From Candidatus Kaiserbacteria bacterium RIFCSPHIGHO2_01_FULL_53_29 (GTDB taxonomy: Bacteria; Patescibacteriota; Minisyncoccia; Phycocordibacterales; UBA2100), in NCBI GenBank assembly GCA_001781125.1, contig MFKT01000029.1, forward strand, positions 68,040-132,039: a stretch of DNA of 64,000 nt, given 5' to 3'. How positions within the stretch are numbered: position 1 is the stretch's first letter; each line of letters begins with the position of its first letter. The notes below the pieces were generated by a model. That model was not told where the DNA came from and did not search any database. It saw only the letters and a list, made by a program, of their open reading frames with translations. The position numbers and the translations under genes are program-made. Of this stretch, positions 3,697-44,058 are shown piece by piece.

Positions 3697-3790
3697 CAGC
3701 AGCTCGTAGCTTGGAGCCTGTAGCCTGAAGAAATGCGATACTAGATGCATGGCGTTTTGCTACCAGCTACAAGCTACTGGCTACAAGCTA
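3697..3790. repeat. Heptamer-array inverted-repeat element (GTAGCNN x4 arms with a 28-nt spacer) between yebC and ruvC
   Basis: Left arm agcagctcgtagcttggagcctgtagcctgaag and right arm gctaccagctacaagctactggctacaagctat are near reverse complements. Member of the seven-copy family in this window. Confidence 0.8.
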
Positions 3791-4284
3791 TGAGAGTGCT
3801 TGCGATAGATCCGGGATACGGCAGATGTGGGGTTGCGGTCGTGGAGAAAAATGGTGGCTCTTCGACTTCGCTCAGGGCAGGGAAAGAAATTCTGCTGTAC
3901 TCCGCGTGTATCAAAACTCCGGCGAGTATGGATTTTCCGGAGCGGCTTGCGATCGTCGCCGACGAATGTGCGCGGCTCATCAAGACTCACGAGCCGGATT
4001 GCCTCGCGATGGAAAAATTATATTTCAGCACGAATCAAAAGACCGCAATGCGGGTCGCCGAAGTGCGCGGCGCTCTGCTCTCCACCGCCAACAACGCTGG
4101 CCTTAAAGTATTTGAATATACGCCCGGCGAGGTGAAGAGTGCGGCGGCAGGCAGCGGAAGCGCCGACAAAAAAGCGGTCGCCCAAATGCTCCGTGCGCTC
4201 GTGAAAATAGAAAAAAAGATCGAGCATGATGACGAATACGATGCCATAGCCATCGCCGTTACACACCTTGCAAGAGTGCGCTAG
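3790..4284 (+). CDS. ruvC: Crossover junction endodeoxyribonuclease RuvC
   Basis: MRVLAIDPGYGRCGVAVVEK N-terminus with the catalytic Asp. Internal Met chosen over the ORF-track start, which lies inside the repeat element. Confidence 0.85.
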   Translation: MRVLAIDPGYGRCGVAVVEKNGGSSTSLRAGKEILLYSACIKTPASMDFPERLAIVADECARLIKTHEPDCLAMEKLYFSTNQKTAMRVAEVRGALLSTANNAGLKVFEYTPGEVKSAAAGSGSADKKAVAQMLRALVKIEKKIEHDDEYDAIAIAVTHLARVR

Positions 4285-4318
4285 GTCAGACGTCTAAAAG
4301 CGATATAATCACTCGAAT

Positions 4319-6796
4319 ATGCGGTCTCTCCGAAAATTGTTGCGGCGCCTCGTCTACATATGGCGGGCGCTTCCTGCGTGGCTTGAATTCGGCATTATCG
4401 GCTCTGCGGCGGTCGTCTTGCTCATCCTTGGAACCGCGGTCGTGTGGGCAACGGTAATGCCGATCCCGGCCATCAACAACTTCCAGAACCGTCAGGTGGC
4501 GCAATCAACGAAAATTTACGACCGCACCGGCAACATCGTTCTCTACGATGTACACGGCACTATGCGGCGCACAGCCGTCCCGATAGACCAAATTTCTCCG
4601 TACGTCCAAAAAGCGGCGGTCGCGGTGGAAGATGAAACATTCTATACCAACGCGGGTTTTCGCCCGCTGTCGTTCTTGCGGGCTGTCGGCACAAACATTC
4701 TTCAGGGAAAACCCCTAAGCGGCCAGGGCGGCTCGACCATCACCCAGCAAGTGGTAAAAAACGCGCTTCTCACGCAGGAGAAGACCGTCTCCCGTAAGAT
4801 CCAAGAAATCATCCTCGCCCTGCGATTGACGCACGTGTACACCAAAGACCAGATACTGAATACGTACCTCAACGAGAGCCCGTACGGTGGTACGATCTAC
4901 GGCGTACAGGAAGCGAGCCAGTATTTTTTCGGCGTCGACGCGAAAGATGTGGATCTGGCACAAGCGGCATACCTTGCGGCACTTCCGCAAGCGCCGACGT
5001 ATTTCTCTCCGTACGGCAACCACCGAGATGCGCTTGATGAGCGCAAAAATTTCGTTCTGTTCCGTATGAAGGATAGCGGATTCATTACGGACGAGGAATA
5101 CGACCAGGCGTTCAACGAAAAGGTGCAATTCAAGGACGTGCGCGAGGCCGGCATCAAGGCGCCGCATTTCGTCTTCTATATCCGCGAACACCTCGAGCAA
5201 AAGTATGGAGTTGATGCGGTAAGTCAGGGCGGCTTGCGTGTTACGACGACGCTCGACTACGACCTGCAGAAAAAAGCCGAGGAAATCGTCGCCAAATTCG
5301 CGCCCAGTATGCTGAGAGATTTCAACGCATCCAATCAAGCGATCGTTGCGATCGACCCGAAGTCGGGGCAAATTCTCGCCATGGTCGGATCAAAGGGCTA
5401 CTTCGACGAGACGATCGACGGCAAGGTGAACGTCGCGCTTGCGAATCGCCAACCCGGTTCTTCGTTCAAGCCGTTCGTGTACGCGACCGCGTTTCAAAAG
5501 GGCTACACGCCCGACACGGTCGTCTTCGATCTGAAGACACAGTTCTCGACGCGATGCGGGGTGCAGGATATCTTGAACGACACGCCGCCGTGTTACTCCC
5601 CCGACAATTTCGACGGCACATTCAAGGGCCCAATAACACTGCGCAACGCGATCGCGCAGTCGGTGAATGTTCCTTCGGTCAAAACTCTCTATCTTGCGGG
5701 GATCAGGGATTCGATCACAACTGCGCGGGACCTCGGCATCACAACACTGAGCAATGCCAATCAATACGGGCTCACGCTCGTCTTGGGCGGCGGAGAGGTG
5801 AATCTTTTGGAAATGACGGGGGCCTATAGCGTATTCGCCAACGATGGCCTCCGGAATCCCCCGACGGGTATTTTGCGCGTCGAAGATAATGCCGGCACTA
5901 TTCTTGAAAGCTACCAGCAGCAGGCGACACAAGTGCTTGATCCGCAGATCGCGCGGCAGATCAACGACGTGCTCTCCGACAATGTCGCGCGCACGCCAGA
6001 ATTCGGGGCCGACTCGCCCCTGAATTTTCCGGGCTATGATGTTGCCGACAAAACGGGAACGACCAACGATTTCCATGACGTGTGGATCTTGGGATATACG
6101 CCGGGCATTGCCGTCGGCGCGTGGGCGGGCAACAATAACAACACCGCAATGGCGAAAAGAATAGCTGCATTCATTATTGCGCCGATGTGGCATGAATTCA
6201 TGGATGCAGCACTCCAAAAGTACTCTTCGCAATCTGATACCTTTGAGGCATCCGCACCGGACGCGAGCTCGTCTTCATTTCCTCCGGTCTTGAGTGGCAA
6301 CTGGAACACTGATCCTTCGCGGGGCGTCCACGATATTTTGTATTGGATAGACAAAGATAATCCGCGTGCAGGCCGCTCGACGAATCCCTGGAGCGATCCA
6401 CAATTCGCCTATTGGGATTATCCGGTGCAGATCTGGGCCGGTCAACAATTCGCACCGGAGGCGACCAGTACCGATCAGGGGGTGCCCGGAGGACCGGATA
6501 TTCCGGGTAACTCCGGCACTGACACGGCGCAATCGGGTTTCCAAATTACATCTCCGCAGCAAGGCGCATCCATCCCCTTCGGCGCGTCAATCACCTTTAG
6601 CGCCGCCTCATCGCAAGCAAGGGAGATCACAAACATCTCATATTTCGTCAATGGAGCCCTCATCGGCACGACCGGGCAGCCTCCCTACACAGCCTCATTT
6701 ACCGCAAACGCGCGCGGCACTGCGGTCTTGCGCGCCGTTGCGCTGCACCTCGATGGTACAAGCGAAGAGCAAACAATAACGTTTACGGTGCAGTAA
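4319..6796 (+). CDS. Class A penicillin-binding protein (glycosyltransferase plus transpeptidase) with a C-terminal Ig-like extension
   Basis: N-terminal TM segment. GT51 motifs (GGSTITQQ, RKIQE), and transpeptidase motifs SSFKP and KTGTT. 825 aa. Confidence 0.9.
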   Translation: MRSLRKLLRRLVYIWRALPAWLEFGIIGSAAVVLLILGTAVVWATVMPIPAINNFQNRQVAQSTKIYDRTGNIVLYDVHGTMRRTAVPIDQISPYVQKAAVAVEDETFYTNAGFRPLSFLRAVGTNILQGKPLSGQGGSTITQQVVKNALLTQEKTVSRKIQEIILALRLTHVYTKDQILNTYLNESPYGGTIYGVQEASQYFFGVDAKDVDLAQAAYLAALPQAPTYFSPYGNHRDALDERKNFVLFRMKDSGFITDEEYDQAFNEKVQFKDVREAGIKAPHFVFYIREHLEQKYGVDAVSQGGLRVTTTLDYDLQKKAEEIVAKFAPSMLRDFNASNQAIVAIDPKSGQILAMVGSKGYFDETIDGKVNVALANRQPGSSFKPFVYATAFQKGYTPDTVVFDLKTQFSTRCGVQDILNDTPPCYSPDNFDGTFKGPITLRNAIAQSVNVPSVKTLYLAGIRDSITTARDLGITTLSNANQYGLTLVLGGGEVNLLEMTGAYSVFANDGLRNPPTGILRVEDNAGTILESYQQQATQVLDPQIARQINDVLSDNVARTPEFGADSPLNFPGYDVADKTGTTNDFHDVWILGYTPGIAVGAWAGNNNNTAMAKRIAAFIIAPMWHEFMDAALQKYSSQSDTFEASAPDASSSSFPPVLSGNWNTDPSRGVHDILYWIDKDNPRAGRSTNPWSDPQFAYWDYPVQIWAGQQFAPEATSTDQGVPGGPDIPGNSGTDTAQSGFQITSPQQGASIPFGASITFSAASSQAREITNISYFVNGALIGTTGQPPYTASFTANARGTAVLRAVALHLDGTSEEQTITFTVQ

Positions 6797-6814
6797 AAAT
6801 CTGGCGCGGTCTTT

Positions 6815-8707: not shown

Positions 8708-9805
8708 CTACCTATTGAGCGGCATCACGAGATACGTGAAGGATGGGTCAGAGACTCCGCGGACAACGAGTGGTTTACCCGCCCCGGCGAAGCCCAAGAT
8801 TATCGAATCGGATTCAATGGTGGGAAGACAGTCGGCGAGGTAGCCGATGTGGAAATTTATGTCAAGATCTTCGCCGGAGACTGCCGTCTCGATCAAATCC
8901 GACATCTCGCCCACTTCGGCACTTCGCGCCGTGGCGCTGAAAATTTTACGCTTCGGATACACATGCAAGCCGACATGCTGGTCGTTACCGGAAAATACGC
9001 GTGCTTTGCGGAGCATCTCGGCAAAATCATTTTTCAAGATGGTTGCTTCGGTTGAGAATGTTTTTGGCATGATCTCCTTGTAATTCGGGAATGTGCCATC
9101 AACAACGCGCGATATGTAGCGCACACCGCCCGCAGCAACGCACATCTGCGAATCATCCGCCGATAAACGTATCTCGTCATCCTCCACACGCTCGAGCACG
9201 TGAGAGAGTTCGAGCGCGTGTTTGAGTGGAATTAAAAGTTCTGTGCTTTGTTTTCCCGTGACGTCGGAGATTTTTTTCTCTGCGAGGCGGAAGGAGTCGG
9301 TTGCAACACACACGATCGCGCCGGGTTTTATTGAAACGTACACACTCCCCAATTCTGGCCGGATCATCGAGGGGGACGCGGCATACGAAACAGACTGAAT
9401 GCCGCGCATAAGCTCCGGCCGCGAGACACTCACGCCATTCTTCTCGTCCGCCTCACCGAGTTTGGGGAATTCTTCGCTCGGAATAGATTTTATAAGGGTT
9501 TTGGTACCACGCGACTCTATCACTAAATTTCCCTCTTCAGTTTTGAGTGTGATTTTTTCCCCGGAAATTGAGCGTAATGTTTGTGAAAGTACTACCGCAG
9601 AAACAGCGACGACCCCCTTATCTTCGATCTCACAAGGGACGTGTATCTCAATACCCGCTTCTAAATTTGTCGCGCGCACCAACAAGTCTCCACCAACCTC
9701 AAGAAGCACGCATGAAAGTACAGGGAGAGATTCTTTCTTTCCCGTTATCCGCTCCGCCAATAAAACAGCATTAAGAATTTTCTCCTTAGTTGTTGTTACC
9801 TTCAT
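8708..9805 (-). CDS. dnaN: DNA polymerase III beta sliding clamp
   Basis: 365 aa. N-terminus MKVTTTKEKILNAVLLAERITGKKESLPVLSCVLLEV is typical of DnaN. Located directly downstream of dnaA. Confidence 0.9.
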   Translation of the reverse strand: MKVTTTKEKILNAVLLAERITGKKESLPVLSCVLLEVGGDLLVRATNLEAGIEIHVPCEIEDKGVVAVSAVVLSQTLRSISGEKITLKTEEGNLVIESRGTKTLIKSIPSEEFPKLGEADEKNGVSVSRPELMRGIQSVSYAASPSMIRPELGSVYVSIKPGAIVCVATDSFRLAEKKISDVTGKQSTELLIPLKHALELSHVLERVEDDEIRLSADDSQMCVAAGGVRYISRVVDGTFPNYKEIMPKTFSTEATILKNDFAEMLRKARVFSGNDQHVGLHVYPKRKIFSATARSAEVGEMSDLIETAVSGEDLDINFHIGYLADCLPTIESDSIILGFAGAGKPLVVRGVSDPSFTYLVMPLNR

Positions 9806-11391: not shown

Positions 11392-11577
11392 GCGCAGAAG
11401 TCGGTCCCATTATACGCGCCGCATCTCCCAAGGGAAGTGCGTGCGTTTTGGGAATCCGAGTGTATAAGGTGGGGATACACTGGGGACAGTAATTAGCCAC
11501 CAGCCGCTCGGGGTTAGAAAAAACAAAACCACATTTTCTAATGGCTAAACCCCAGTGGCTATGCTACCATTCCCCGC

Positions 11578-11712: not shown

Positions 11713-11715
11713 CAA

Positions 11716-12170: not shown

Positions 12171-12174
12171 CACT

Positions 12175-19408: not shown

Positions 19409-19414
19409 AGAGTT

Positions 19415-19445
19415 AGCTTGTAGCCGGTAGCTTGTAGCCGGTAGC
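19415..19445. repeat. Heptamer-array arm (AGCTTGT/AGCCGGT units), left arm flanking the IVS-protein gene
   Basis: agcttgtagccggtagcttgtagccggtagc. Reverse complement of the arm at 19818-19853. Confidence 0.8.
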
Positions 19446-19465
19446 TAAAAAAGCACCCGGCAAGC

Positions 19466-19816
19466 TTACCGAAGCGCTTTAATCATACCATGCAACATTT
19501 TACTCATTTCGGTTACTTGTGTACGCACGTTTTCGAACTCTTTTTCTGTGCAAAAGGCAAGCTCCTTGCTTATTAAGAGCTGCGTTTCAAGCTCAGCTAA
19601 GGAGCCGTGCGCCATTCGCAAGAAATGTCCAAAATCGGCATCGGTCCCACGCCGTCTCCCCTCTGCTATGTTTGATGGTACAGATACGGCTGCGCGACGG
19701 ATTTGTGATGTAAGGCCATACATCTCACGCGACGGGAACTTTTCGGTGAGCCGGTATATCAATGTACAAAGTGCAACCGCCTTTTTCCAGACCGCCAAAT
19801 CTTCGTGTGATTGCAT
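19466..19816 (-). CDS. Four-helix-bundle protein of the 23S rRNA intervening-sequence (IVS) family (PF05635-like)
   Basis: HEDLAVWKKAVALCTLIYRLTEKFPSREMYGLTSQIRRAAVSVPSNIAEGRRRGTDADFGHFLRMAHGSLAELETQL is the hallmark sequence of this family. ATG at 19816 preferred over the TTG at 19840, which lies inside the repeat arm. Confidence 0.8.
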   Translation of the reverse strand: MQSHEDLAVWKKAVALCTLIYRLTEKFPSREMYGLTSQIRRAAVSVPSNIAEGRRRGTDADFGHFLRMAHGSLAELETQLLISKELAFCTEKEFENVRTQVTEMSKMLHGMIKALR

Positions 19817-19817
19817 A

Positions 19818-19853
19818 GAGCTACGGGCTACTGGCTGCAAGCTACTGGCTTAC
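19818..19853. repeat. Heptamer-array arm, right arm flanking the IVS-protein gene
   Basis: gagctacgggctactggctgcaagctactggcttac. Inverted partner of 19415-19445. Confidence 0.8.
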
Positions 19854-20473
19854 TGCGGTGGCTCCCGGTAGGGATCGTCTTCAACGGACTTCCGAACTGT
19901 CGAGGCCTCGCCGGCTTTGTAGGCGGCTGATACGGGCGCGCGTTCTATTTTCCCCGTAGGTGAGGTCGAGGGCGGTGTAGCCGGTGCAACGAAGCTTGTA
20001 GCTTGTAGCTTGTAGCTTGTAGCAGATTCGGCATTCGTGCTGGCTTCAGGCTCCAAGCTACTGGCTACGGGCTGTTCTCCCAGCACTTGCGAGCGCACAT
20101 CTTCAACCCCGGTCGTATCTGCGGCCCTTGCATCCGGATGCTCGAGCTCACGCTCGAGCTGTTCGCGGACCGGTTGGAACACGATGCGGGAAACATTCGA
20201 AGCCAAGTCCTGTGCCATCTCCTGCGTAACATCAAGGTCTGCTTTGATGTTATCCGCAAGCTCCTCCGGTGGCTGGAACCCCATGAGCGTGAGCAGTACC
20301 TCGTTCTCCAGGAGTTGCCATTGGTCAAGATGCAATTTATTGGTATCCGCCAATTCCCGCAGCTGCTTCTGTATGTCGGTCGACGTAATAGCATCTTGCA
20401 ACACCTTCGGGAGCTCCTTAAACCGCTCCTTCAACTTCGCATTCAACTCATCTTGTGTCATTTTCATGTCCAT
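19850..20473 (-). CDS. Hypothetical acidic protein whose C-terminal region is encoded by a heptamer-repeat element
   Basis: N-terminal 120 aa look protein-like (MDMKMTQDELNAKLKERFKELPKVLQDAI...). C-terminal part translates the repeat (SYKLQATS). True 3' end uncertain. Confidence 0.4.
   Translation of the reverse strand: MDMKMTQDELNAKLKERFKELPKVLQDAITSTDIQKQLRELADTNKLHLDQWQLLENEVLLTLMGFQPPEELADNIKADLDVTQEMAQDLASNVSRIVFQPVREQLERELEHPDARAADTTGVEDVRSQVLGEQPVASSLEPEASTNAESATSYKLQATSFVAPATPPSTSPTGKIERAPVSAAYKAGEASTVRKSVEDDPYREPPQ
19993..20074. repeat. Heptamer-array inverted-repeat element (4 x AGCTTGT left arm, spacer, complementary right arm)
   Basis: agcttgtagcttgtagcttgtagcttgtagc, then a 19-nt spacer, then gcttcaggctccaagctactggctacgggctg. 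Confidence 0.8.
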
Positions 20474-23505: not shown

Positions 23506-25209
23506 TTACTTCCACTTTGTGACCCACGCCGCTCTCGTCGCATCGTTCGTGGCGTTGCACCAGCCGACCCCGGGATTTGTCGTGCCGTCCCATGAGAGAT
23601 TTGCGGGAGTGCTCCCATCAGAGCCGACTCCTGTCCATGTATCTCTCGTCGTTTGCAGCAAATTCGTCAATGAGCTCAGGGTGCTTTGCTGTTGCTGTGT
23701 GATCGCTGCCACATCCGGCGGCGTATGGAGAACAGGAGGACGCGCACTGACGAGCTGATCGAGCTCCTGGAGTGCCTGGGATTGTGTGGCGGGATTCGAG
23801 AGACGTGCAGCGATACTCGTGAGTTTTGCAAGCGTTTCATCGGATTTCTGGATGGCGGGTAGTATTTGAGCCGCCAAAGTTCCGATCTGGGAATCGATGA
23901 CCGCTTGCGCGAATTGATAGGTCGAAGTCGCAACGGTGAGACTGCCGCTTGCAGGCGGTTTGGCGGTACATTTTCTATCAGCGTCTGGTGGTGCGGTGCA
24001 CACGTTCGAAATGACGAGAGCCCAGCACTGATTCTCGAGGCCCCGCAGCTGCAATGTCGCTTGCGTGAGCAGACTCCCGATCGATTTCACGACCTGATTG
24101 TACTGCTGCTCTGTTCGCAGAGCGCCGGCGAGATTGTTGTTCGCGACATTGACGGCGGCATCCCGCAGGCCCTGCCCCGATTGCGAGGAGACCTGATCGA
24201 GATATGATGGCTGGCCGCCGATGCTTTGAGACAGGCCCGCGAGTCCCTGAGAATCAGCCACGATCTGTGTTGCCACGCCGGCATAGAGAGCTCCTATCAT
24301 CTGGCCGATGTCGTTGGCGCTTTCCAGTTGGCGCACAGAACTATCGATGACGTTCTGGAACGTGCTGTTCACGTTGGAGGCTGGCGTGAGCACCCTTTGG
24401 TTCAGGGGATCTTGCGCCCCATCGGTTAGGGCATAATAGCCGCGACCCCAATTCCATTGATCAAGCTGGTACTGTTTCGCCGCTGCGATCCTGCTGTTTA
24501 CGAGATCCTGAGCTTCAAATTTTGCATATAGAGGGACACAATCCGGATCGGCCCCGGCAAGAAAAGCATCGAAACTGAAATTCTGTGTCGGGTTGGTCTG
24601 GAACGGGGTCAGATCCCCCTCATAGGGACACGTGAGCTCGGTCTGCGGCGCCCTAGTACTTGTGTCGTAATTGACGAGTACGGCACGACTCACCGCCGCC
24701 TTGAAAGCCGGATTGAGCGAATCGAGCGCACCGCTCTGGAACCACGAAACGAATACTTGATCGCCTACGGTCAAGAGTTCCTGCCCTTCATTCACCGCGT
24801 ACTGTGGATTGCCGTTGCGACCCTCTTGGATCCCCTTGTAAGACCTTTTTAAATATGCTGCGCTGGCGGCTTCCCGCTGGCGGACTATCACTTCGCGCAG
24901 CACGCATTCTTTGTACACCAGGATCCCTGTATTGAGCTCGACGGTCGCATCGGCAACGGGCACGTATATCCCGTTTGCCGTGAGCGACCCCACATTCATC
25001 GCGAACGCGCCGTTCTGGTTGCAGTCGAAGATCCCCTGTCGCTGGTATTGATACGCCTGCGCGTTCGCAAAAAGAGGCAGAAAGCATCCCGAGACAACGA
25101 GCGCAGACAAAAGGGTCTTCTTCACCCCGTTAGAGACCGCAGGCAACGAATTTTCTTTCATCATCATTTGGTCAGTTGTTGGACGACCGGAGTCTCTAAT
25201 GGGGCTCAT
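23506..25209 (-). CDS. Large secreted protein of unknown function (T4SS-locus associated)
   Basis: 567 aa. Hydrophobic leader KKTLLSALVVSGCFLPLFANAQA. ATGA start/stop overlap with the upstream gene. Q/N/S-rich. Confidence 0.55.
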   Translation of the reverse strand: MSPIRDSGRPTTDQMMMKENSLPAVSNGVKKTLLSALVVSGCFLPLFANAQAYQYQRQGIFDCNQNGAFAMNVGSLTANGIYVPVADATVELNTGILVYKECVLREVIVRQREAASAAYLKRSYKGIQEGRNGNPQYAVNEGQELLTVGDQVFVSWFQSGALDSLNPAFKAAVSRAVLVNYDTSTRAPQTELTCPYEGDLTPFQTNPTQNFSFDAFLAGADPDCVPLYAKFEAQDLVNSRIAAAKQYQLDQWNWGRGYYALTDGAQDPLNQRVLTPASNVNSTFQNVIDSSVRQLESANDIGQMIGALYAGVATQIVADSQGLAGLSQSIGGQPSYLDQVSSQSGQGLRDAAVNVANNNLAGALRTEQQYNQVVKSIGSLLTQATLQLRGLENQCWALVISNVCTAPPDADRKCTAKPPASGSLTVATSTYQFAQAVIDSQIGTLAAQILPAIQKSDETLAKLTSIAARLSNPATQSQALQELDQLVSARPPVLHTPPDVAAITQQQQSTLSSLTNLLQTTRDTWTGVGSDGSTPANLSWDGTTNPGVGWCNATNDATRAAWVTKWK

Positions 25210-26053
25210 AGCTGTTTTTTCGCGTTGTACGAGTAGAGCCCACTGAACGATGTGAACATGTTCCGTTCGGCCTGATCATAGCTGCGCAAGAGTGCCACTG
25301 AGGCAAACGGGTCCTCCGCGTGTGCCACCAGCTGCTCAAGTGTCGCCGCGAATTCCTGCATTGCATTAAGAATAGCGAGGTGCTGCACGACAGCGTCTGC
25401 CGGAGCCGCGACATTCGCAGTGGAGGCAGCCGCATCTTTGTAATTCTTTGCCACTTCGGTGAGTTCTTTGAGGTAGGACGCATCTTTCGTTTGCACGTAG
25501 TTCCCAAAGATCTCGTATTCAGGGGTCGTGTTCTTGAAAAGCGGCTTCAGTGTGCTCTGGAGAGCAAGGCGATACGCGAGCATTGCCGCATAAGACGTGT
25601 CGGAGCTTGTCTTGACGTCTGCCTTTGTGAAGCGGCGATATGAGACCTCTGCGCGCATCAGCGGAGCGAGATCCTGTGCGATTTGCGCGCCCGCCTCCTC
25701 CGTATACGTACCCGCTTGCTGCATCTGCGCGTATTGACCGGCAAGCCGGTCCATCACCACTGCGCCAATGGAGGAGATCGCGTCGGTCGAAGACGTCGCG
25801 GATGAAAAAGATGCACTGCCGAATATCGACATCCCCGCCACGTTTTCTTTTGACGAAGAAATGTCTGTACCCGCATCCGCAGAGGCGACATAGGTCGTTG
25901 CACTTTTCTTCTCCTGCACCGATCTCTCCACGCTCCATCCAAGAACCACCATGAGCGCCAAGACAGAAGCTGCGGCGGTTATCCCAATAGCCGTGAACCC
26001 ACGACTGTTGTTGCAATAGGACAAAAAGCCCACGCATCTGTTCGCGCGTTTCG
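25206..26053 (-). CDS. Membrane-anchored protein of unknown function (start uncertain; ORF-track N-terminus runs into the repeat element)
   Basis: TM segment ITAAASVLALMVVLGW followed by an S/A/T-rich soluble domain. Upstream ORF extension translates heptamer repeats (MLQATSYWLQ), so the start is placed at the GTG/Met near 26053. Confidence 0.45.
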
Positions 26054-26075
26054 TTCTCACACAGGAAGTATAACA

Positions 26076-26171
26076 AGCTTGTAGCCAGTAGCTTGTAGCT
26101 TGTAGCAAAAAAGAGGAAAAATACGAAACACTCTCTGGCTTCAGGCTACGAGCTGCTGGCTACAGGCTCCC
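26076..26171. repeat. Heptamer-array inverted-repeat element
   Basis: agcttgtagccagtagcttgtagcttgtagc, then a 31-nt A-rich spacer, then ggcttcaggctacgagctgctggctacaggctcc. Confidence 0.8.
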
Positions 26172-26210: not shown

Positions 26211-27104
26211 TTATGGGCTCATGGGCGTGAACGTGAAGACGCTTCCCGCATCACTTTGTGCAAAGACGACGCCATAGGCGCCGAAAAGTTCTGCCACCGC
26301 GACATAGTTTCTTGTGAACGTATCAGCCGAAGCGTTGTACGTCTGTATTGCCGCAATAAAATCACTATCGCGCTCTGCATAAGGCACCAGTGCGAGGTTG
26401 GTTCCTATCGCGATGTAGCTCTTTGCCAATTTCTGGTGCGCCGAAGCCATTGCGCTTGGCACGACGTCCATACCTTGGAGATTTTGGCCCACTTCTTTGA
26501 GAGCCCGCGCGAGCTCGCCCACGGCGGCTGCCTTATTGCTGTCACTGCGGTCCTCGACCTGATCTTTAAGCGTCTGCGCTTTCCCTTGGTTCTGTTCTTC
26601 AAAAGATCGAATGTATGAACCAATATCGTTGCCGTAATCGTAGAGTTTTTGCTGTGTCGCGCTGCGACTCTGTTGGACCGACGTGGTGCTCATAAGTCCG
26701 CTTGGTATGAATGCGTATGCATCTGTCACCTGGTTGTCAGTGCCTCGCGCCCCGCCCGAGGCGGGTCGGCCTTGGGCCGAGAGCAGTGCGATGAACGCGT
26801 TGAAATCGAATGGAGCACTCTGCTCCGTATCAGGATCTTTTACCACAGGCGGGGTATATGCGGAGGGCACGGTCAGAACATTTGGGAACACGGAGTATTG
26901 ATTTTGGGATGGCTGGGTCGACGCGGGGGCAGGAGGCGTATGCGATGATGGATTGAAGAGTGAGATCTCTGTGCCTGCCCACGTCCGTGTGCTTGCGGCG
27001 GGGGATGCCGCGGAGCGGCTGTTCACAATGAGCGCGCCCACGAGGAGAAGTGCCAGCGTTGCGGCCAATGCATCTACGTACGGGTGTGCGCGTAACCAAT
27101 TCAT
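26211..27104 (-). CDS. Membrane-anchored protein of unknown function; carries an in-frame palindromic insertion (QGRPASGGARG)
   Basis: 297 aa. N-terminal TM ALAATLALLLVGALIV. First gene of the minus-strand operon. Contains the element cccgaggcgggtcggccttggg at 26755-26776. Confidence 0.5.
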   Translation of the reverse strand: MNWLRAHPYVDALAATLALLLVGALIVNSRSAASPAASTRTWAGTEISLFNPSSHTPPAPASTQPSQNQYSVFPNVLTVPSAYTPPVVKDPDTEQSAPFDFNAFIALLSAQGRPASGGARGTDNQVTDAYAFIPSGLMSTTSVQQSRSATQQKLYDYGNDIGSYIRSFEEQNQGKAQTLKDQVEDRSDSNKAAAVGELARALKEVGQNLQGMDVVPSAMASAHQKLAKSYIAIGTNLALVPYAERDSDFIAAIQTYNASADTFTRNYVAVAELFGAYGVVFAQSDAGSVFTFTPMSP

Positions 27105-27197
27105 AGCCGGTAGCCGGTAGCTTGTAGCTCGTAGCGGATCCGAAGCCCCATCCGACTAATTGTACGGCTACGGGCTACAGGCTACAAGCTACGGGCT
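27104..27197. repeat. Heptamer-array inverted-repeat element in the divergent promoter region
   Basis: agccggtagccggtagcttgtagctcgtagc, then a 30-nt spacer, then ggctacgggctacaggctacaagctacgggctg. Confidence 0.8.
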
Positions 27198-27215
27198 GTG
27201 TGGTAAAATTTATGA

Positions 27216-39389: not shown

Positions 39390-41574
39390 TGTATTCGCCG
39401 CCGCCTTGATCCGGCTTCAGGCCCTTGCGCGTGGCCCACTCCGGATCGGCAGCTTTGATAGAGAGATTATAGCGCCCTTTCTCGTCGATTTCTTTCAGTA
39501 CCACGGGAACGATGTCCCCGATCTGCACGGCATCCGAGATCTTACCGATGCGGAAGGGGGCCACTTCAGAGACGTGCACAAGTCCGTCCTGATTGGGAGT
39601 GATCTTGACGAATGCTCCGAAGTCCATAAGGCGAACGACGGGGCCTTCGAATCTGTCACCCACCATGTATTCGCGCGTGAGATCACTGATCTCTTTCTGC
39701 GCCGCCTCTGCGGCTCCGTCTTTTCCGGTGATAAATATCGTACCGTCTTCTTCGATGGTGATGTCGTCCGCTCCGGTACGCTCACGAATGCCGTTGATCA
39801 TCTTGCCGCCGGGGCCGATGACGAGTCCGATCTGGTCCTTCTTCACGATAATCGTAAGGATCTTCGGCGCGCGGGGCGAGATGTCAGCACGTGGCGATGC
39901 GATCTCTTTCGTAATAACCTCGAGAATTTGCATCCGCGCTTTTTTTGCCTGCGCAAATGCTTCGCCCAACACTTTGAGCGGTACGCCATCGACTTTCACA
40001 TCCATCTGCACGGCGGTGACTCCCTCTGAAGTTCCTGCGACCTTGAAATCCATGTCGCCGTGATGGTCTTCCGGTCCCTGGATGTCAGTAAGAACTTTGT
40101 ATTGCATTTCACTGCTGCCTGTTTTCTGTTTGCCGGCGCCTGACATGAGGCCCATCGCGATCCCTGCGACAGGGCGCGTGATGGGCACCCCTGCATCCAT
40201 GAGCGCGAGTGCGCCCGCGCACACGCTTGCCATCGAGGTCGAGCCATTGGATGCGAGCGACTCACAGACGACCCGGATGGTGTATGGGAAGACATCTTTC
40301 TGCGGAAGGACTGCGCGCAGAGCTTTCTCTGCGAGTGCACCGTGGCCTGTCATGCGGCGGTTGAATCCGCCGACACGCCCTGTTTCTCCCACGGAAAATG
40401 GCGGGAAATTGTAGTGGAGCATGAACGTCTTTTTGGTTTCTTGGTACTCGATAGTGTCGATGAGCTGCGCATCCCCGGGGCCGCCGAGCGTGAGCGCCGC
40501 AAGCACGTGCGTTTGCCCGCGATAGAAGAGACCGGTGCCGTGGATGACGGGAGAGATATTTCCAGCTTGCGCGAACAAGGGGCGTATCTCATCGAATGCG
40601 CGACCGTCGACGCGCTTCCCGCTCTTTATTGCAAGATCGTGCACATATTCGTCCACGCGGTGTTCGTAGTAGGTGCTTATTTTGCCGGACTCAATGTCGG
40701 GAAATGTCGCTGCCGCGTGCGCTGCCCATTCTCCCTTAAGTTCGTTGAAGTCTTCTTTTGCCAGCATATCTTTCTTTGCCTTGATGCGTGACATAACGAC
40801 CTCATCGAAGACAGAAATGAGCCTCCCGTCGTCCTCGAAGGGCGGGATGAATTTTGATTTAGGAACGGCACGCTCTGCGATGATCGTTTTTTGCCATGTC
40901 TGCAATTTTTCTATCTCCTCGCTCGCGCGTGCGAGTGCCGCCTCGAGTGCCTCTTCGGGCACTTCCGCGGCGCCGACTTCTATCATATTAATGAGACCGT
41001 CTTTGCCGCAGGTGAGAAGATCCATTTGCGCGGTGGTCTCAAGACGCTGAATGTAATTGGGGTTGACGATGAACGCATCGGTCCCTTTATCCCGAGCACC
41101 GTCGAGGGGCTTTTCTATCCCGATACGCACAGCAGAAACAGGACCGTTCCATGGAATATTGGATGTGGCGAGTGCGAGTGATGCTGCGTTGACCGCCAGC
41201 ACATCGGTATCGTATTCTTCGAGCGAGAGCACGGTGATTATGACCTGTATTTCTCGCGTCAGTCCTTTGGGAAAAAGTGGGCGAATAGTGCGGTCGACGA
41301 TGCGGCCCGAAAGTATTGCTTCATCGGAGGGCCTCCCTTCGCGGCGCATGAAGCGCGAGCCGAGGATCGCTCCTGCTGCATAGAATTTCTCCTCATATTC
41401 GACGGTGAGGGGGAAATAATCTTTGTCTGATTCCCGGCCCATGACCGCAGTTGCTAAAACGGCGCTATTGCCATAGCGCACGAGAACCGAACCATTTGCC
41501 TGGTCCGCCCAGTCGTTGAACTCGGCCGACATCGTATGCCCCCCAATTTCGAGAGAATATACCTTCTTTTCCAT
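39349..41574 (-). CDS. pnp: Polyribonucleotide nucleotidyltransferase (PNPase)
   Basis: Two RNase PH domains plus KH and S1 domains. Start at MEKKVYSLEIGG. C-terminal R/P/N-rich tail. Confidence 0.9.
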   Translation of the reverse strand: MEKKVYSLEIGGHTMSAEFNDWADQANGSVLVRYGNSAVLATAVMGRESDKDYFPLTVEYEEKFYAAGAILGSRFMRREGRPSDEAILSGRIVDRTIRPLFPKGLTREIQVIITVLSLEEYDTDVLAVNAASLALATSNIPWNGPVSAVRIGIEKPLDGARDKGTDAFIVNPNYIQRLETTAQMDLLTCGKDGLINMIEVGAAEVPEEALEAALARASEEIEKLQTWQKTIIAERAVPKSKFIPPFEDDGRLISVFDEVVMSRIKAKKDMLAKEDFNELKGEWAAHAAATFPDIESGKISTYYEHRVDEYVHDLAIKSGKRVDGRAFDEIRPLFAQAGNISPVIHGTGLFYRGQTHVLAALTLGGPGDAQLIDTIEYQETKKTFMLHYNFPPFSVGETGRVGGFNRRMTGHGALAEKALRAVLPQKDVFPYTIRVVCESLASNGSTSMASVCAGALALMDAGVPITRPVAGIAMGLMSGAGKQKTGSSEMQYKVLTDIQGPEDHHGDMDFKVAGTSEGVTAVQMDVKVDGVPLKVLGEAFAQAKKARMQILEVITKEIASPRADISPRAPKILTIIVKKDQIGLVIGPGGKMINGIRERTGADDITIEEDGTIFITGKDGAAEAAQKEISDLTREYMVGDRFEGPVVRLMDFGAFVKITPNQDGLVHVSEVAPFRIGKISDAVQIGDIVPVVLKEIDEKGRYNLSIKAADPEWATRKGLKPDQGGGEYNGRRPDRPPNRRT

Positions 41575-41863
41575 TATCTCTTTGGGTGATGTTGGGACCT
41601 GCCCCGTAGTGAGTCCAGCTTCCTCTCGCAGACAGCTCAATTCCTGATTGTGGTGCCCGACCTCTCGGACAACGTAATCAAAAATTGAGGACTCTACTGC
41701 GGGGTTTCAGCGAAAACACTCGCCTATCCAAACACCACGACTATTTATTAATGTAGCCAGTATACCCAAATCCCGCGTTTTTACAATACTTATCTATCGA
41801 TTTGATGACGCGGGGCGTGTAGCGGAGTAACGTGCTGCTTCTTTTGTGTTTTGTGCGGATCCC

Positions 41864-41892
41864 CACCAACAATTCCATGGAATTGTTGGTGA
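41864..41892. promoter_or_regulatory. Perfect palindrome CACCAACAATTCCATGGAATTGTTGGTG downstream of arsR and upstream of pnp
   Basis: 28-bp perfect inverted repeat, a second copy of the operator-like site at 42197-42222. Confidence 0.6.
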
Positions 41893-41902
41893 GACACATT
41901 TG

Positions 41903-42175
41903 CTAGATGAAGAGCCTAACGGTTTTAGTGAAATCTTGCGGCATGCGGGAGTTGAGTGAATAGAACACGTGGCCATCCCTCCCTTCTACTCCCAATACGC
42001 CGAGCTTCTGGAGCATGATGAGGTGATTGGATGTTGCGGTGACGGAGATCCTTAGCGCCTCCGCGATATCGCCCACATTCATTTTGCGTCGTGTAGATAA
42101 CAGGATAACTATCTTGAGCCGATTTAGATTCGAGAGAGCTTTGAAAACGATAGTCCACCGCTGCATGTCTTTCAT
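41903..42175 (-). CDS. ArsR/SmtB-family metalloregulator
   Basis: 91 aa from the internal Met (MKDMQRW). HTH LKIVILLSTRRKMNVGDIAEALRISVTATSNHLIMLQKLGVL. The ORF-track N-terminal extension is not protein-like. Confidence 0.65.
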   Translation of the reverse strand: MKDMQRWTIVFKALSNLNRLKIVILLSTRRKMNVGDIAEALRISVTATSNHLIMLQKLGVLGVEGRDGHVFYSLNSRMPQDFTKTVRLFI

Positions 42176-42196
42176 ATCAAAAGTATAGCACACAAC

Positions 42197-42222
42197 AATT
42201 CCATGGAATTGTTGTAGGGCGT
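42197..42222. promoter_or_regulatory. ArsR-type operator palindrome ACAACAATTCCATGGAATTGTTG in the arsR/terC divergent promoter
   Basis: 22-bp perfect inverted repeat immediately upstream of the arsR start and of the divergent TerC-family gene. Confidence 0.65.
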
Positions 42223-42275
42223 TGGGTGAACTGGGGACGTGTTGAAGCGCAGACGAACATGCTATCATATCGACC

Positions 42276-43259
42276 ATGCAGATCTTGGTGTTTCCGGCGA
42301 TTCTGACAGTGGTCGCCTCTGTCGCGGCATATGCGTGGGGCGGCCCCACCGCGCTTTTTCTCCTTGTCATCCTCGTCGTGCTTGAAACGACGCTTTCATT
42401 CGATAATGCCGTCGTGAATGCCAAGGTGCTCTCGCGGATGGATGAGAAATGGCAGCGGAGATTTCTTACGTGGGGCATCCCGATCGCGGTATTCGGCACG
42501 CGCTTTGTGCTTCCCATTCTCATCGTCTCGGCAGCCGCCGCGATCGACCCCATTGCTGTATTCAAACTCGCGATCTTCGATTCTATCCGGTATGGAGAAT
42601 ACCTTCACGACGCGCATGTATCGATCGCCGCGTTCGGTAGTGCATTCCTCTTTCTCGTTTCTCTCAAATATTTTTTTAATACAGCGAAGACGGTGCACTG
42701 GCTCGGATGGATCGAACGGTACTTTTCGCGCTGGGGCGGTATCGAAGCGATCGAGATCGCACTTGTCCTCCTGATCCTGCTCGTTGCCGCCTTTTTTGAG
42801 CCGCAGAAGGCTGCCGCGATCCTCATGGCGGGCCTCATTGGCATCATCCTTTTCATCGTTATTCAGGGGGTCGCCCAGTCTTTTGAGATGAAAGCCGGAC
42901 ATGAAACGGTTGCCGCAGGCGCTGCTCTGTTCGTCTATCTCAATGTTCTTGACTCCGCTTTTTCACTCGATGGCGTTGTCGCGGCATTCGCGGTTACATC
43001 AAGTCTCCCGCTCATTATTGCCGGTCTCGGCATCGGTGCTCTCTTTGTGCGCTCATTCACCGTGCTTCTCGTTCGGGCGAAAACTCTTGAAACCCTTATC
43101 TACCTCGAACACGGGGCGCACTGGGCGATCCTCGGGCTCGCGCTCGCGATGCTTATGAGCATTTTTGTGCACGTGCCGGAAATCATCACCGGCCTCATCG
43201 GTCTGGTATTTATCATACTCGCGTATATCTCATCGCGCAGAGAGATGCGCGCTACATAA
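42276..43259 (+). CDS. TerC-family integral membrane protein (putative metal exporter)
   Basis: Duplicated ExxLSxDNAVV motif (ETTLSFDNAVVNA and DSAFSLDGVVAAFAV) in a protein of about 9 TM. Confidence 0.65.
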   Translation: MQILVFPAILTVVASVAAYAWGGPTALFLLVILVVLETTLSFDNAVVNAKVLSRMDEKWQRRFLTWGIPIAVFGTRFVLPILIVSAAAAIDPIAVFKLAIFDSIRYGEYLHDAHVSIAAFGSAFLFLVSLKYFFNTAKTVHWLGWIERYFSRWGGIEAIEIALVLLILLVAAFFEPQKAAAILMAGLIGIILFIVIQGVAQSFEMKAGHETVAAGAALFVYLNVLDSAFSLDGVVAAFAVTSSLPLIIAGLGIGALFVRSFTVLLVRAKTLETLIYLEHGAHWAILGLALAMLMSIFVHVPEIITGLIGLVFIILAYISSRREMRAT

Positions 43260-43261
43260 GG

Positions 43262-43915
43262 TCACTCCACTCCCGTGATCTTGCCGATCTTGGATATGTC
43301 CTCCGTCGATTGTGGCGCTATGGAATCTTCAGACGCTGATACCTGCACATCGCTTGCTTGCCCTGAACCAGACGAGCGGGTCGAACGACGGCGCATGGTG
43401 GGGCCACGGTAATTGATGAGGTAGCGGCGCGGTTCTTCGTCGAGGTCGAGGAAGTGGTCGGTCGCTTCTTTGAGTTTGAGGGATGTGGAGCGCCCGAAGG
43501 ATACCACTTCCACCTGACAGCCTGCGTGGATCTTCAGGTATTCGACGAGCGGAATGAAGTCACCGTCACCGGTAAAAAGTATCACCGTGTCGAGCTTGGA
43601 CGACGCGGTGATGGCGTCGACCGCCAGCCCCACGTCCCAGTCGGCCTTTTTGGCACCGCCATAGAATATCTGGAGATCTTTGGTTTTTGGCTCGATGCCC
43701 ATTTTGGTGAGTGCCTCGAGAAATGCAGTCTCCTCGCCGGACTCGGTCGTCACCATGTAGGCGCGCGCGCGAATGAGGCGGCGACCGGCGACCGAATCTT
43801 TGAGCACGTTGCCGAAATTCACGCGTGCGTGATAAATATTCTTCGCGCTATGGTAGAGATTTTGCGTGTCGATGAAGACGCCGACGCGCTGTTCCGGATG
43901 CTTGATGATGGCCAT
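43262..43915 (-). CDS. NYN/LabA-like domain protein
   Basis: VGVFIDTQNLYHSAK ... LFTGDGDFIPLVEYLK match the NYN nuclease fold. S/T/R-rich C-terminal tail. Confidence 0.7.
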   Translation of the reverse strand: MAIIKHPEQRVGVFIDTQNLYHSAKNIYHARVNFGNVLKDSVAGRRLIRARAYMVTTESGEETAFLEALTKMGIEPKTKDLQIFYGGAKKADWDVGLAVDAITASSKLDTVILFTGDGDFIPLVEYLKIHAGCQVEVVSFGRSTSLKLKEATDHFLDLDEEPRRYLINYRGPTMRRRSTRSSGSGQASDVQVSASEDSIAPQSTEDISKIGKITGVE

Positions 43916-43919
43916 AAAT

Positions 43920-44058
43920 AGCTTGGAGCCAGTAGCTTGTAGCTAGTAGCAATAAAAAATAAAAAAGAATTTATAAAAAACTTACTAAAGTGTACTCCCT
44001 TACGAAACGCGAGCAAACGAATTTGCTCCAGGCTACCGGCTACGAGCTACAGGCTATT
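43920..44058. repeat. Heptamer-array inverted-repeat element with an 80-nt A/T-rich spacer containing an internal hairpin (gagcaaacgaatttgctc)
   Basis: agcttggagccagtagcttgtagctagtagc ... ggctaccggctacgagctacaggctatt. Lies between the NYN gene start and the rpsO stop. Confidence 0.8.

Follow-up and report, generated by a model that had tools for sequence, protein, structure and literature searches.

The question raised by this locus, a 64,000-nt stretch of the Candidatus Kaiserbacteria (CPR) contig MFKT01000029.1 (the window), is what the inverted arrays of a GTAGC heptamer that recur at its gene boundaries are, and what they do there. A sequence-only reading had proposed a seven-member family; the coordinates that it listed all hold and the multi-copy family of hairpin-forming arrays is real, consisting of six inverted pairs (E1-E6, Table 1) with 12 arms, each built of 3-5 tandem GTAGCYN units in which the first variable position is invariably Y. 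In particular, GTAGCNNGTAGC at ≤1 mismatch has 44 matches in the window against 1.76 ± 1.25 expected from 100 dinucleotide-preserving shuffles (largest shuffle 5), and 41 of these fall within the 12 arms, the remaining three being located at 1473, 20868 and 55903. Period-7 arrays of 2.6-5.0 copies are found by TRF at all arms, with no further substantial heptamer family in the window. A codon-usage effect as the source of the motif, the artefact that the earlier reading had itself considered, was rejected.

Table 1. Coordinates of the heptad elements and associated features in the window.
Feature	Position	Strand	Details
E1, ORF-less heptad hairpin	3693..3790		Whole yebC-ruvC spacer; left arm 3693-3727, loop 3728-3758, right arm 3759-3790
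E2 left arm on +	19413..19445		3' arm in the sense of the - strand genes
Intrinsic-terminator-like hairpin and T-run	19446..19473	-	3' end of S23p gene; in E2 loop, directly before 3' arm
S23p gene, cargo in E2 loop	19466..19816	-	PF05635 '23S rRNA-intervening sequence protein' / TIGR02436
E2 right arm on +	19820..19853		5' arm in - strand sense
E3, heptad hairpin translated in frame	19993..20074		Inside ORF 19850..20473, - strand
E4, ORF-less heptad hairpin	26076..26171		Between co-directional - strand genes 26211..27104 and 25206..26060
E5, ORF-less heptad hairpin	27102..27199		Between divergent genes
E6, ORF-less heptad hairpin	43919..44058		Between rpsO and NYN-domain gene, both - strand

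The arms pair imperfectly, with mismatches mainly at the two variable unit positions, to form stems of ~27-33 bp. The RNA folds of E1 and E3-E6 range from -41 to -58 kcal/mol on the + strand (z -3.4 to -9.0), a stability reached by 0/200 shuffles; E4 attains -57.7 kcal/mol (z -9), E1 -41.3 on the + and -47.8 on the - strand, and the E2 arms joined by a tetraloop -48.8 (+ strand, z -8.8) and -36.9 (- strand, z -7.8). In agreement with the complementarity first noticed, it is well supported that the elements are long imperfect hairpins, with a heptad specific to the genome repeated in tandem along one arm and, inverted, along the other.

The location of the elements exactly at gene boundaries was likewise confirmed. 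The first unit of E1 is the yebC stop TAG (3693-3695) and its last base is the A of the ruvC ATG (3790), the flanking genes being assigned to YebC and RuvC by Pfam; the first unit of E6, which has a 74-nt A/T-rich loop, holds the rpsO stop TAG (44056-44058), and the NYN ATG (43915) is 3 nt past the other arm. The outer end of the E2 right arm holds the stop TAA (19850-19852) of the upstream 207-aa gene, the S23p ATG (19816) is 3 nt inside this arm, the ATG of the PrgI-family gene (19408) is 4 nt outside the left arm, and the - strand ATG 27104 abuts the left arm of E5; the starts of ruvC, PrgI, the S23p gene, the 297-aa gene and the NYN gene all lie 0-4 nt from an arm. E3 is instead found within a gene: the peptide SYKLQATS, previously placed at an ORF end, belongs to an in-frame insert in the variable linker of a conserved Kaiserbacteria protein of the 190-aa type, and its in-frame TAGs are mutated to GAG/AAG. 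Rickettsia palindromic elements (RPE) are likewise palindromic repeats that can lie in frame within genes without disrupting them; they are families of 100-150 bp with conserved sequence and no known associated S23p gene, whereas the window elements are heptad arrays. The N-terminus MLQATSYWLQ was correctly considered spurious, the likely start of the gene 3' of E4 being GTG 26060, with its own TATACT box at -12..-7.

The family is best understood from E2. Its spacer, described earlier as a short unique sequence beside an 'IVS gene', is 374 nt long and corresponds to a complete gene, which is cargo within the element and not a neighbour. The encoded protein matches PF05635 (E=2.6e-40), TIGR02436, NF008911 and PDB 2gsc (E=7.5e-29); TIGR02436 designates a four-helix-bundle protein, and S23p is the 23S-rRNA IVS protein, a homologue of Avd. 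It is well supported that E2 is the S23p-carrying copy and that E1 and E3-E6 are ORF-less copies also built on GTAGCYN; the loops of the latter have nothing in common with the S23p region, so their derivation from E2 is putative. The terminator-like hairpin at the 3' end of the S23p gene, if efficient, would end transcripts ahead of the E2 3' arm and block the long RNA stem.

Heptad arrays accompany S23p elsewhere. In a survey of 80 unselected metagenome S23p loci, fetched by protein only, in which an array was defined by a best period-7 self-match of at least 14/21, 64% of the upstream and 68% of the downstream flanks pass, both flanks doing so in 40/71 loci, against 3.9% of control windows (n=876); nothing was found at periods 4-6 and 9-12. 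Other intergenic gaps on S23p-bearing contigs pass in 25% of cases (n=24), and part of the association is therefore background. The arms are at a median of 1 nt from the start codon and -2 nt from the stop codon, the downstream unit, once reverse-complemented, agrees with the upstream one at 5.75/7 positions (3.78/7 between loci), and AG is present in 93/100 arms read in the 5'-arm sense: the two arms around S23p repeat a single lineage-specific unit in opposite orientations, and the AG(T/C/G) core of this unit is conserved. Of the S23p genes encountered by chance, 5/5 lie between inverted heptad arrays (the window, L136 Kaiserbacteria, L092 Uhrbacteria, L108 Bacteroidetes and L006 Terriglobia), cultured replicates are provided by Calothrix, Anabaena 90, Nostoc punctiforme and Riemerella, and plasmid matches of S23p are mostly from Nostocales, where the S23p genes are heptad-flanked. 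It is well supported that the heptad-hairpin architecture brackets S23p (PF05635/TIGR02436) genes in many phyla, and equally that GTAGCYN (arm register A-G-C-Y-N-G-T) belongs to a general class of heptads, A-G-(T>G>C)-N-N-Y-Y; no mention of the S23p-heptad link was found in the literature searched.

Farther than 250 nt from S23p, 8/16 arrays match its arm unit at ≥6/7, against 7/300 across loci, and several of these unit-sharing arrays are ORF-less hairpins or in-gene inserts; solo arrays near S23p in L006 and L092 have a unit unlike that of the S23p arms. In the comparison with related Kaiserbacteria genomes, as originally proposed, L136 has S23p and arrays at the E2 and E3 positions, with the different unit NNAGCTN and 7 arrays in 20.7 kb, while L133 and L135 have no S23p at the orthologous locus and no arrays in the ~35 kb read. 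The E2 and E3 positions keep their elements though the proteins are only 55% identical and the unit has turned over, and array positions are poorly conserved between related genomes. A population variant (L225) lacks 14 nt, equal to two units, from the E2 left arm. Arrays evolve by whole units, which are homogenised within genomes and differ between them. The concentration at the T4SS-like locus claimed at first is weak, involving 4/6 elements, and orthologous loci in relatives are without elements.

Upstream of gene starts in the host genome, TANNNT peaks at exactly -12 and SD motifs show no peak, and leaderless mRNAs with a -10 box at -12..-7 and no Shine-Dalgarno appear to be common. The stem-following genes (ruvC, PrgI, S23p, the 297-aa gene and NYN) have no -10 box, which their hairpin-less orthologues have, as TATAAT + 6 nt + ATG before PrgI in L133/L135 and as TAnnnT at -12/-13 before ruvC in L131-L134; the stem therefore probably supplies the expression of the directly following genes. 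Beyond E5, TAAAAT (27204-27209) precedes the + strand ATG 27216.

The explanation that best accommodates these data, to which we give an even chance, is that the elements are IVS-like, co-transcribed heptad hairpins, one S23p-bearing and five ORF-less, evolving by slippage and homogenised within the genome. They would behave like 23S rRNA intervening sequences (IVS) located in mRNA operons: inside or between co-directional genes, read-through transcription would generate ~27-33-bp stems, a kind of structure cleaved by RNase III in those IVS of Coxiella and Leptospira that contain S23p, and uncut stems would shield 3' ends as REP hairpins do. Processing of the stem may leave a 5' end beside the AUG of the next gene, or its base may bring the upstream stop and the next start codon together for reinitiation, as E1 and E6 would allow. 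Recognition of the heptad by S23p is suggested by the conserved AGY core, by the fixed polarity and by the units that arrays have in common with the resident S23p flanks. Neighbours are co-oriented with surveyed S23p genes upstream in 50/59 cases, downstream in 41/56 and on both sides in 27/42. Contrary to what selection for a sense RNA stem predicts, E1-E5 fold better on the strand antisense to the flanking genes, and the absence of a sense/antisense G-U bias in S23p flanks (36 vs 32) is also not as expected under such selection.

In the Coxiella IVS, a 28-bp stem that RNase III cleaves carries the S23p ORF in its loop, and 2-3 tandem heptamers (GACAGAT) lie upstream of the ATG, their number depending on the strain (PMC4990558). 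The 23S rRNA IVS of Coxiella burnetii and Leptospira resemble E2 in the PF05635 ORF filling the loop of a long terminal inverted-repeat stem, in the tandem heptamers adjoining the start codon and in the start codon without a good SD, and, like the window elements, they sit in a host transcription unit (PMC4990558). In contrast, the host of E2 is an mRNA operon of T4SS-like genes and not helix 25/45 of 23S rRNA, the window arms are made wholly of heptads, five ORF-less copies with the same unit occur elsewhere, one in a coding region, and excision by RNase III is putative for the window. The architecture is not unprecedented: tandem heptamers are known from the stem region of the S23p IVS in Coxiella (PMC4990558) and convergent inverted heptamer pairs in Xanthomonas (PMC4692102), and GTAGCNN arrays occur in many phyla, 26 of them as GTAGC->GCTAC pairs with a 26:10 polarity.

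This polarity also agrees with a reading at the DNA level, unlikely, in which the heptads are iterated, convergently oriented operator-like sites on dsDNA, bound by S23p oligomers acting as autoregulator, insulator or roadblock at gene junctions, with hairpin potential a by-product of inverted sites, on the model of the heptad operators of the pSM19035 omega repressor. A conserved 2-3-nt core with four free positions and fixed inward polarity, the genome-specific units common to S23p flanks and distant arrays, and the lack of G-U strand bias fit such binding; moreover, in PMC3936711 and in an alignment the residues best conserved in S23p make up an R/S/N/E-rich face of a helix (GxxRxxxSxxxNxxE), and a Nostoc preprint postulates a protein partner of heptamer repeats (10.1101/2022.06.06.494920). 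However, dsDNA binding by S23p is putative, the agreement of the arms extends to the variable positions, which pairing explains directly and binding would need co-evolving specificity to explain, arrays are tolerated in coding regions (E3, L092, L147), and the Coxiella IVS works at the RNA level.

Rather less probable is that the arrays are neutral or selfish simple-sequence by-products, functionless heptamer tracts from polymerase slippage whose arms are kept similar by template switching in the quasi-palindrome and into which S23p cassettes insert preferentially, or in which they survive best. The two-unit polymorphism, the poor conservation of positions and the frequency of arrays in other gaps favour it, and among the intergenic tandem repeats of prokaryotes heptamers rank first in abundance, without known function (bioRxiv 309039). 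A slippage origin was already proposed for such heptamers (PMC4692102). The Xanthomonas GGGAATC repeats (Rehm et al. 2015, PMC4692102) are intergenic tandem heptamers like those of the window, with 70-75 loci per genome consisting of two convergent opposite-strand arrays with stem-loop potential; they are transcribed, their length is species-dependent, and pair type and position are often retained (PMC4692102). Unlike the window unit, theirs is G-rich, without an AG/CT core and interpreted as G-quadruplex-forming, and the paper draws no S23p link (PMC4692102). Slippage leaves unexplained the conservation of AGY core and polarity across phyla, the homogenisation of arrays scattered through a genome towards a single unit, the placement of arms exactly against start and stop codons, the loss of the -10 box downstream of hairpins and the retention of the E2/E3 positions despite divergence and unit turnover.

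Mobility as non-autonomous elements of REP/REPIN-RAYT or MITE type, moved by a transposase (Y1/HUH or other) whose gene lies elsewhere, possibly via single-stranded DNA at the replication fork, is improbable. GTAG is the conserved tetranucleotide of REPs, and REP/BIME/REPIN are, like the window elements, short intergenic palindromes in many copies at gene junctions; REPs are known to stabilise upstream mRNA. In favour of mobility, arms share blocks exceeding one unit, such as GTAGCTTGGAGCC in E1L, E3R and E6L, presence in relatives is patchy, the S23p and PrgI starts have an 11-bp direct repeat, and the better-folding strand flips across the dnaA/GC-skew minimum, which would place it on the lagging-strand template, but this flip is confounded with gene orientation (n=5). 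Against mobility, the Pfam scan of ~46 window ORFs found no transposase, RAYT, integrase or RT, S23p modules have no general target-site duplication (6.1 vs 5.9 nt), the loops are unrelated, and the arms are tandem arrays of varying length with no fixed terminal repeat, whereas REPs are single palindromes of 20-40 nt, fixed in sequence and dependent on a RAYT gene. The earlier statement that the elements are not CRISPR stands, and no TSD, transposase or RAYT was seen.

Very improbable, finally, are bidirectional expression stops, in which the hairpin would terminate transcription and period-7 GTAGC would put TAG in all three frames of the entering strand: three units do so by construction, the first unit supplies the yebC and rpsO stops, and E4 and E6 come after gene ends, but the stems have no following U-tract, the next start codon comes directly after E1, E2 and E6, E5 is flanked by divergent starts, translation continues through E3, and stops in all frames are not a general property of the class (49% of units vs 37.5% shuffled and 44% for the complement).

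Cyanobacterial heptamer repeats of the STRR type were reportedly described by Mazel et al. in 1990. These and the Nostoc repeats are, as in the window, dispersed tandem heptamers by start codons and in intergenic regions (PMC4692102; bioRxiv 2022.06.06.494920), mostly reported as single arrays where the window has inverted pairs; STRR1 (CCCCAGT) and STRR3 (CAACAGT) contain the AGT core of the heptad class, and a previously unreported relation of the STRR and Nostoc heptamers to S23p is suggested. The arrangement of S23p genes between heptad arrays may help to explain the abundance of 7-base repeats between bacterial genes.

The hairpin elements of the window (E1-E6) occur at six places, in each of which the left arm consists of tandem GTAGCYN 7-mers and the right arm of their complement, as read directly; the sequence-only reading had counted seven elements. 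With ≤1 mismatch allowed, GTAGCNNGTAGC has 44 matches against 1.76 expected and a shuffle maximum of 5; 41 of the 44 fall inside the 12 arms, all of which show period 7 and 2.6-5.0 copies by TRF; apart from this family, TRF detected no genuine heptamer repeats in the window. The proposed architecture of paired inverted heptamer arrays is confirmed by folding, the arms being complementary both in the elements other than E2 (-41 to -58 kcal/mol, z -3.4 to -9.0) and in the joined arms of E2 (-48.8 / -36.9 kcal/mol, z -8.8 / -7.8); the mismatches between arms fall mainly at the two variable positions of the unit. All six elements are convergent pairs. The intergenic placement claimed from sequence alone holds for five of the six and fails for E3, located within a gene, while the spacer described between the arms is found in the other elements and not in E2, whose 374-nt "spacer" is a gene.

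Coordinates and setting of the six hairpin elements
Element	Coordinates	Setting
E1	3693-3790	between YebC and RuvC genes
E2	arms 19413-19445 and 19820-19853	S23p gene between the arms
E3	19993-20074	within linker protein gene
E4	26076-26171	before 297-aa protein gene in listed order
E5	27102-27199	between 297-aa and 104-aa protein genes
E6	43919-44058	between NYN gene and rpsO

The cargo of E2 is a PF05635/TIGR02436 gene (PF05635 E=2.6e-40) encoding S23p, the 23S-rRNA intervening-sequence (IVS) protein; a terminator-like hairpin with a T-run is present at its 3' end, within the E2 loop. The loops of E1 and E3-E6 contain no ORF and, by similarity comparison, no S23p remnant, so that their origin from a decayed S23p gene was rejected. 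An exact 11-bp direct repeat, ATTGCATAGAG at 19402-19412 and 19810-19820 (CTCTATGCAAT on the - strand), causes the S23p and PrgI genes both to start CTCT-ATG-CAA-T directly after an arm; it has the appearance of a duplication that accompanied the arrival of the S23p cassette and is idiosyncratic to E2, comparable direct repeats not being general around S23p genes. The product of ORF 19850..20473 (- strand), here called the linker protein, has 401 homologues, most of them of 184-190 aa and ending DDPYREPP; E3 inserts ~17 residues into its variable linker, and the TAGs due in frame are mutated to GAG/AAG. A separate, non-heptad hairpin with a 13-bp stem (CGATTTGT..GCGCGTAGCGCG..ACAAATCG) lies at 26176-26210, with the stop of gene 26211..27104 on one side and E4 on the other.

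The RuvC of the window shares 100% identity with a Candidatus Kaiserbacteria RIFCSPHIGHO2 (CPR) protein. According to Pfam and NCBIfam, the gene order is RuvB, YebC, E1, RuvC, PBP, dnaN, dnaA, YidC and Jag, followed by a T4SS-like cluster with TraG/VirB4-like and PrgI proteins, in which PrgI, an E2 arm, S23p, the other E2 arm and the 207-aa protein containing E3 are successive; then come large unknown proteins, E4, the 297-aa protein, E5, the 104-aa protein, KsgA and UvrD and, farther along, PNPase, DUF475, NYN, E6 and rpsO. Among the window genes, these searches turned up neither a transposase nor an integrase nor an RT. In the region 39349-44356, rpsO and pnp are non-adjacent, unlike in E. 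coli: rpsO is followed by E6 and the NYN-domain (RNase-fold) gene, and between NYN and pnp there is a DUF475/TerC gene of opposite orientation. At 8708-12348, dnaN and dnaA precede an apparently non-coding stretch and yidC; this region is probably the replication origin, since cumulative GC skew reaches its lowest value close to dnaA, at 10-12 kb.

The TAG stops of yebC and rpsO coincide with the first unit of an arm, and the starts of ruvC, PrgI, S23p, the 297-aa gene and NYN are 0-4 nt from one. Upstream of the ~49 gene starts in the window SD-like motifs form no peak, and a TANNNT box peaks sharply at -12 (8 genes exactly at -12; 12/49 at -14..-11), a pattern that points to frequent use of leaderless mRNAs by this Kaiserbacteria genome. 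The -10 box is absent at the five arm-abutting genes: a promoter inside the 3' arm was rejected as no TAnnnT occurs at -12..-7 before ruvC, S23p, the 297-aa gene and NYN, and PrgI has only a weak CAAGCT at the right spacing. The genes just past E4 and E5 have a box, TATACT before GTG 26060 and TAAAAT before ATG 27216.

S23p, a small protein without an assigned function, has a very wide distribution that takes in rRNA IVSs, cas operons and CPR rRNA insertions. Its association with heptads was examined in 80 metagenomic loci retrieved by protein similarity only, with an alignment of five S23p proteins as query, and scored as the best period-7 self-match within 120 nt of the S23p start or stop. 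A self-match of ≥14/21 is reached upstream in 64% and downstream in 68%, compared with 3.9% of 876 control windows and 25% of 24 other intergenic gaps; at ≥17/21 the values are 33%, 36%, 1.6% and 12.5%, respectively. Both flanks pass in 40/71 S23p loci, far above 0.25 squared, and periods 4-6 and 9-12 give nothing in these flanks, period 8 being a minor variant. When the downstream unit is reverse-complemented, it agrees with the upstream one at 5.75/7 positions; between loci the agreement is 3.78/7. AG is present in 96% of 5' arms and CT in 92% of 3' arms; together with the unit logo, A-G-(T.61 / G.20 / C.16)-N-N-Y-Y, this indicates that the polarity of the stem is fixed and that four positions are lineage-specific. 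The arms abut the S23p start and stop codons, the neighbouring genes are mostly co-oriented with S23p (50/59 upstream, 41/56 downstream), and target-site duplications are not general around S23p modules.

The unit is also shared within a genome: 8/16 arrays located >250 nt from S23p match ≥6/7 of the unit of the resident S23p arm, against 7/300 across loci, and several of them resemble the window elements in being ORF-less hairpins or in-gene inserts. Heptad flanks of S23p are likewise found in plasmid records of cultured Calothrix, Anabaena, Nostoc and Riemerella; among the plasmid matches of S23p the Nostocales, classical STRR taxa, predominate. In a plasmid of Anabaena sp. 90, the S23p gene lies between cas6 and cas4 with flanks (CAGGTGA)n/(TCACCTG)n, and in one of Picosynechococcus between cmr2 and cmr3 with 8-10-nt GGAGATAA-type inverted repeats. 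Some S23p arms (L188, L211, L139, L219) are TAGGGTT or TAGGGTG arrays; the same string makes up the plant-type telomere repeat TTTAGGG, probably by chance among members of the nAGnnnn class.

Runs of four exact GTAGCNN units were found at ≥120 loci in many phyla. Pairs in the order GTAGC->GCTAC, with loops of 0-49 nt, account for 26 of the loci and pairs in the opposite order for 10; the Gallionellales and Nitrosomonadales copies even have a loop in common. Three GTAGCNN loci also contain an S23p gene, each between inverted arrays of its own unit (ATAAGCC, TGGCTAC/GCCAGNN and GCACTTR). In an Uhrbacteria locus (L092), single GCTAC-type arrays at 3120-3154, 3373-3407 and 3656-3683 lie inside apparently one membrane-protein ORF, all in the stop-free orientation, with an S23p gene 200 nt upstream that is flanked by another unit, ATAAGCC.

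Among contigs with the same RuvC, E1 is identical in 9/10, the tenth having a scaffold gap there, and one assembly (L225) lacks exactly 14 nt, i.e., two units, of an E2 arm while the rest of the sequence is identical, so that arrays change by whole units. Species with 75-87% identical RuvC have no array between yebC and ruvC; because they carry other genes there, no clean orthologous empty site for E1 was found among the relatives. Their ruvC has its own TAnnnT box. This junction (window 3141-4284 versus L131-L134) is variable, with VIT1, methyltransferase genes or a small unknown gene in between. The Kaiserbacteria locus L135, whose linker protein is 65% identical by BLASTP, has neither S23p nor an array at the locus, nor any array in ~35 kb of its genome, and its PrgI is preceded by TATAAT + 6 nt + ATG. 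In L136, also of the Kaiserbacteria (linker protein about 50-55% identical), inverted arrays enclose an S23p gene at the position corresponding to E2, and the linker carries an inverted pair where E3 lies in the window; the unit is NNAGCTN, and the locus has 7 arrays in 20.7 kb, including some at junctions where the window has none. From the presence of arrays at both positions with a different unit, the structures at the E2 and E3 positions are concluded to be old and the unit to have turned over in concert within each genome. The 104-aa gene (27216-27530) is inverted relative to L135 (3976-4290), where it is co-directional with and adjacent to a 303-aa gene; E5 is exactly at this rearrangement junction, and L136 has an LTD-domain gene instead. 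In the related Kaiserbacteria L134 (4694-4738), the spacer preceding ruvB holds a different heptamer array, of GAAATGA / GAAGTGA type, which extends as far as a TATAAT-like box; the convergent PBP and dnaN genes of the relative L132 are separated by a degenerate inverted pair (13010-13075), TAGTTCGTAGTAAG ... CTACGAACTACGTTCTACAAACTAC, whose core is GTAGT/ACTAC.

Among known element classes, S23p-type IVSs share with E2 alone the PF05635 ORF in the loop and with all elements the stem of ~20-30 bp formed by long terminal inverted repeats (z -8.8/-7.8 in E2, -3.4 to -9 in the others). These IVSs are located in helix 25 or 45 of the 23S rRNA gene, whereas the window elements lie between or within protein genes; the Rfam scan of the window gave only 4 tRNAs, hence no rRNA and no other known RNA family. 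The Coxiella IVS has a 28-bp stem, which RNase III cuts, with an S23p ORF in its loop and 2-3 tandem heptamers, strain-variable in number, before the ATG (PMC4990558); S23p genes have also been reported within cas operons (PMC3936711) and among CPR rRNA insertions (bioRxiv 2024.02.27.582315). The STRR/Xanthomonas heptamer repeats resemble the window arms in having ≥3 head-to-tail 7-nt copies, in being intergenic and often convergent inverted pairs, as at the 26 loci of other phyla, and in varying in copy number between strains, as in L225; Xanthomonas has ~180 GGGAATC arrays, 70-75 of them in convergent inverted pairs (PMC4692102). Heptamers are the most abundant intergenic tandem repeats in prokaryotes, with "no clear clue" to function (bioRxiv 309039), and a Nostoc study postulates a yet-unidentified protein partner (bioRxiv 2022.06.06.494920). 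Intrinsic terminators have a G+C-rich stem and then a U-tract, whereas what follows the window arms is a start codon or a -10 box, and a scan of 19300-27600 reported no intrinsic terminator at the arms. The window elements are a Kaiserbacteria member of a little-understood class of prokaryotic heptamer-repeat hairpins, and the feature is real.

As to function, the elements may be co-transcribed with the neighbouring genes, the hairpins undergoing predicted RNase III-type cleavage or protecting 3' ends, and the downstream gene would be expressed through processing or stop/start juxtaposition; S23p would be a putative binder of the heptad. This RNA-stem reading is weakened by the terminator-like signal inside E2, by the absence of an RNA-sense G-U bias in S23p flanks (36 vs 32, from duplex-fold energies that discriminate poorly, the shuffled control being -46 vs -66), and by the better folding of E1-E5 on the strand antisense to the flanking genes. 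The better-folding strand flips between E1, left of the putative origin, and E2-E5, right of it, a pattern confounded with gene orientation. A rival explanation is that the arrays are operators at which S23p acts on DNA. The arrays may also be neutral products of slippage. A further rival is mobility of the REP or MITE type. REP/REPIN-RAYT elements are single conserved 20-40-nt palindromes with 5' GTAG and a RAYT (Y1 transposase) gene, whereas the window arms are tandem arrays of variable length and no Y1_Tnp or other transposase domain occurs in ~46 window ORFs; MITEs have fixed terminal inverted repeats, a TSD and a related autonomous transposon, and were rejected since there is no TSD in general, the loops are unrelated and no transposase was found in the window. 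A CRISPR array, with direct repeats of 23-55 nt and unique spacers of similar length, was rejected because the window units are contiguous 7-mers in inverted pairs; the sequence-only reading had set the elements apart from all three classes. Bidirectional stops, the remaining rival, lose weight because the all-frame stop module holds for GTAGC by construction but does not extend across the class (49% of units vs 37.5% of shuffled ones).

To return to S23p as a heptad-binding protein, it is possible, if on balance rather doubtful, that it is the missing trans-acting partner of tandem heptamers, and that S23p with convergent AGY-cored arrays constitutes a module, selfish or regulatory and of wide occurrence, that would include the rRNA IVS as one special case and would be seeding and homogenising genome-specific ORF-less hairpins (E1, E3-E6, possibly cyanobacterial STRRs) that shape mRNA processing and expression at gene junctions. 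The cross-phylum link between heptamers and S23p is strong and was not found in the open-access literature searched, where no statement of a general rule came up, an earlier description elsewhere being possible; the literal motif strings gave only unrelated primer matches. The window joins heptamers and S23p in one system and the wider sampling shows that both occur jointly: inverted heptad arrays enclose S23p genes, and these are arrays whose core is conserved and whose remainder is genome-specific, this remainder being common to S23p arms and to ORF-less hairpins elsewhere in the same contig. For annotation, arrays that give spurious ORF extensions and in-frame inserts are to be recognised as such. 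The heptamer repeats thereby gain a concrete candidate partner and S23p a concrete candidate substrate, and the arrangement suggests how genes downstream of hairpins may be expressed in an SD-poor, apparently leaderless-rich genome.
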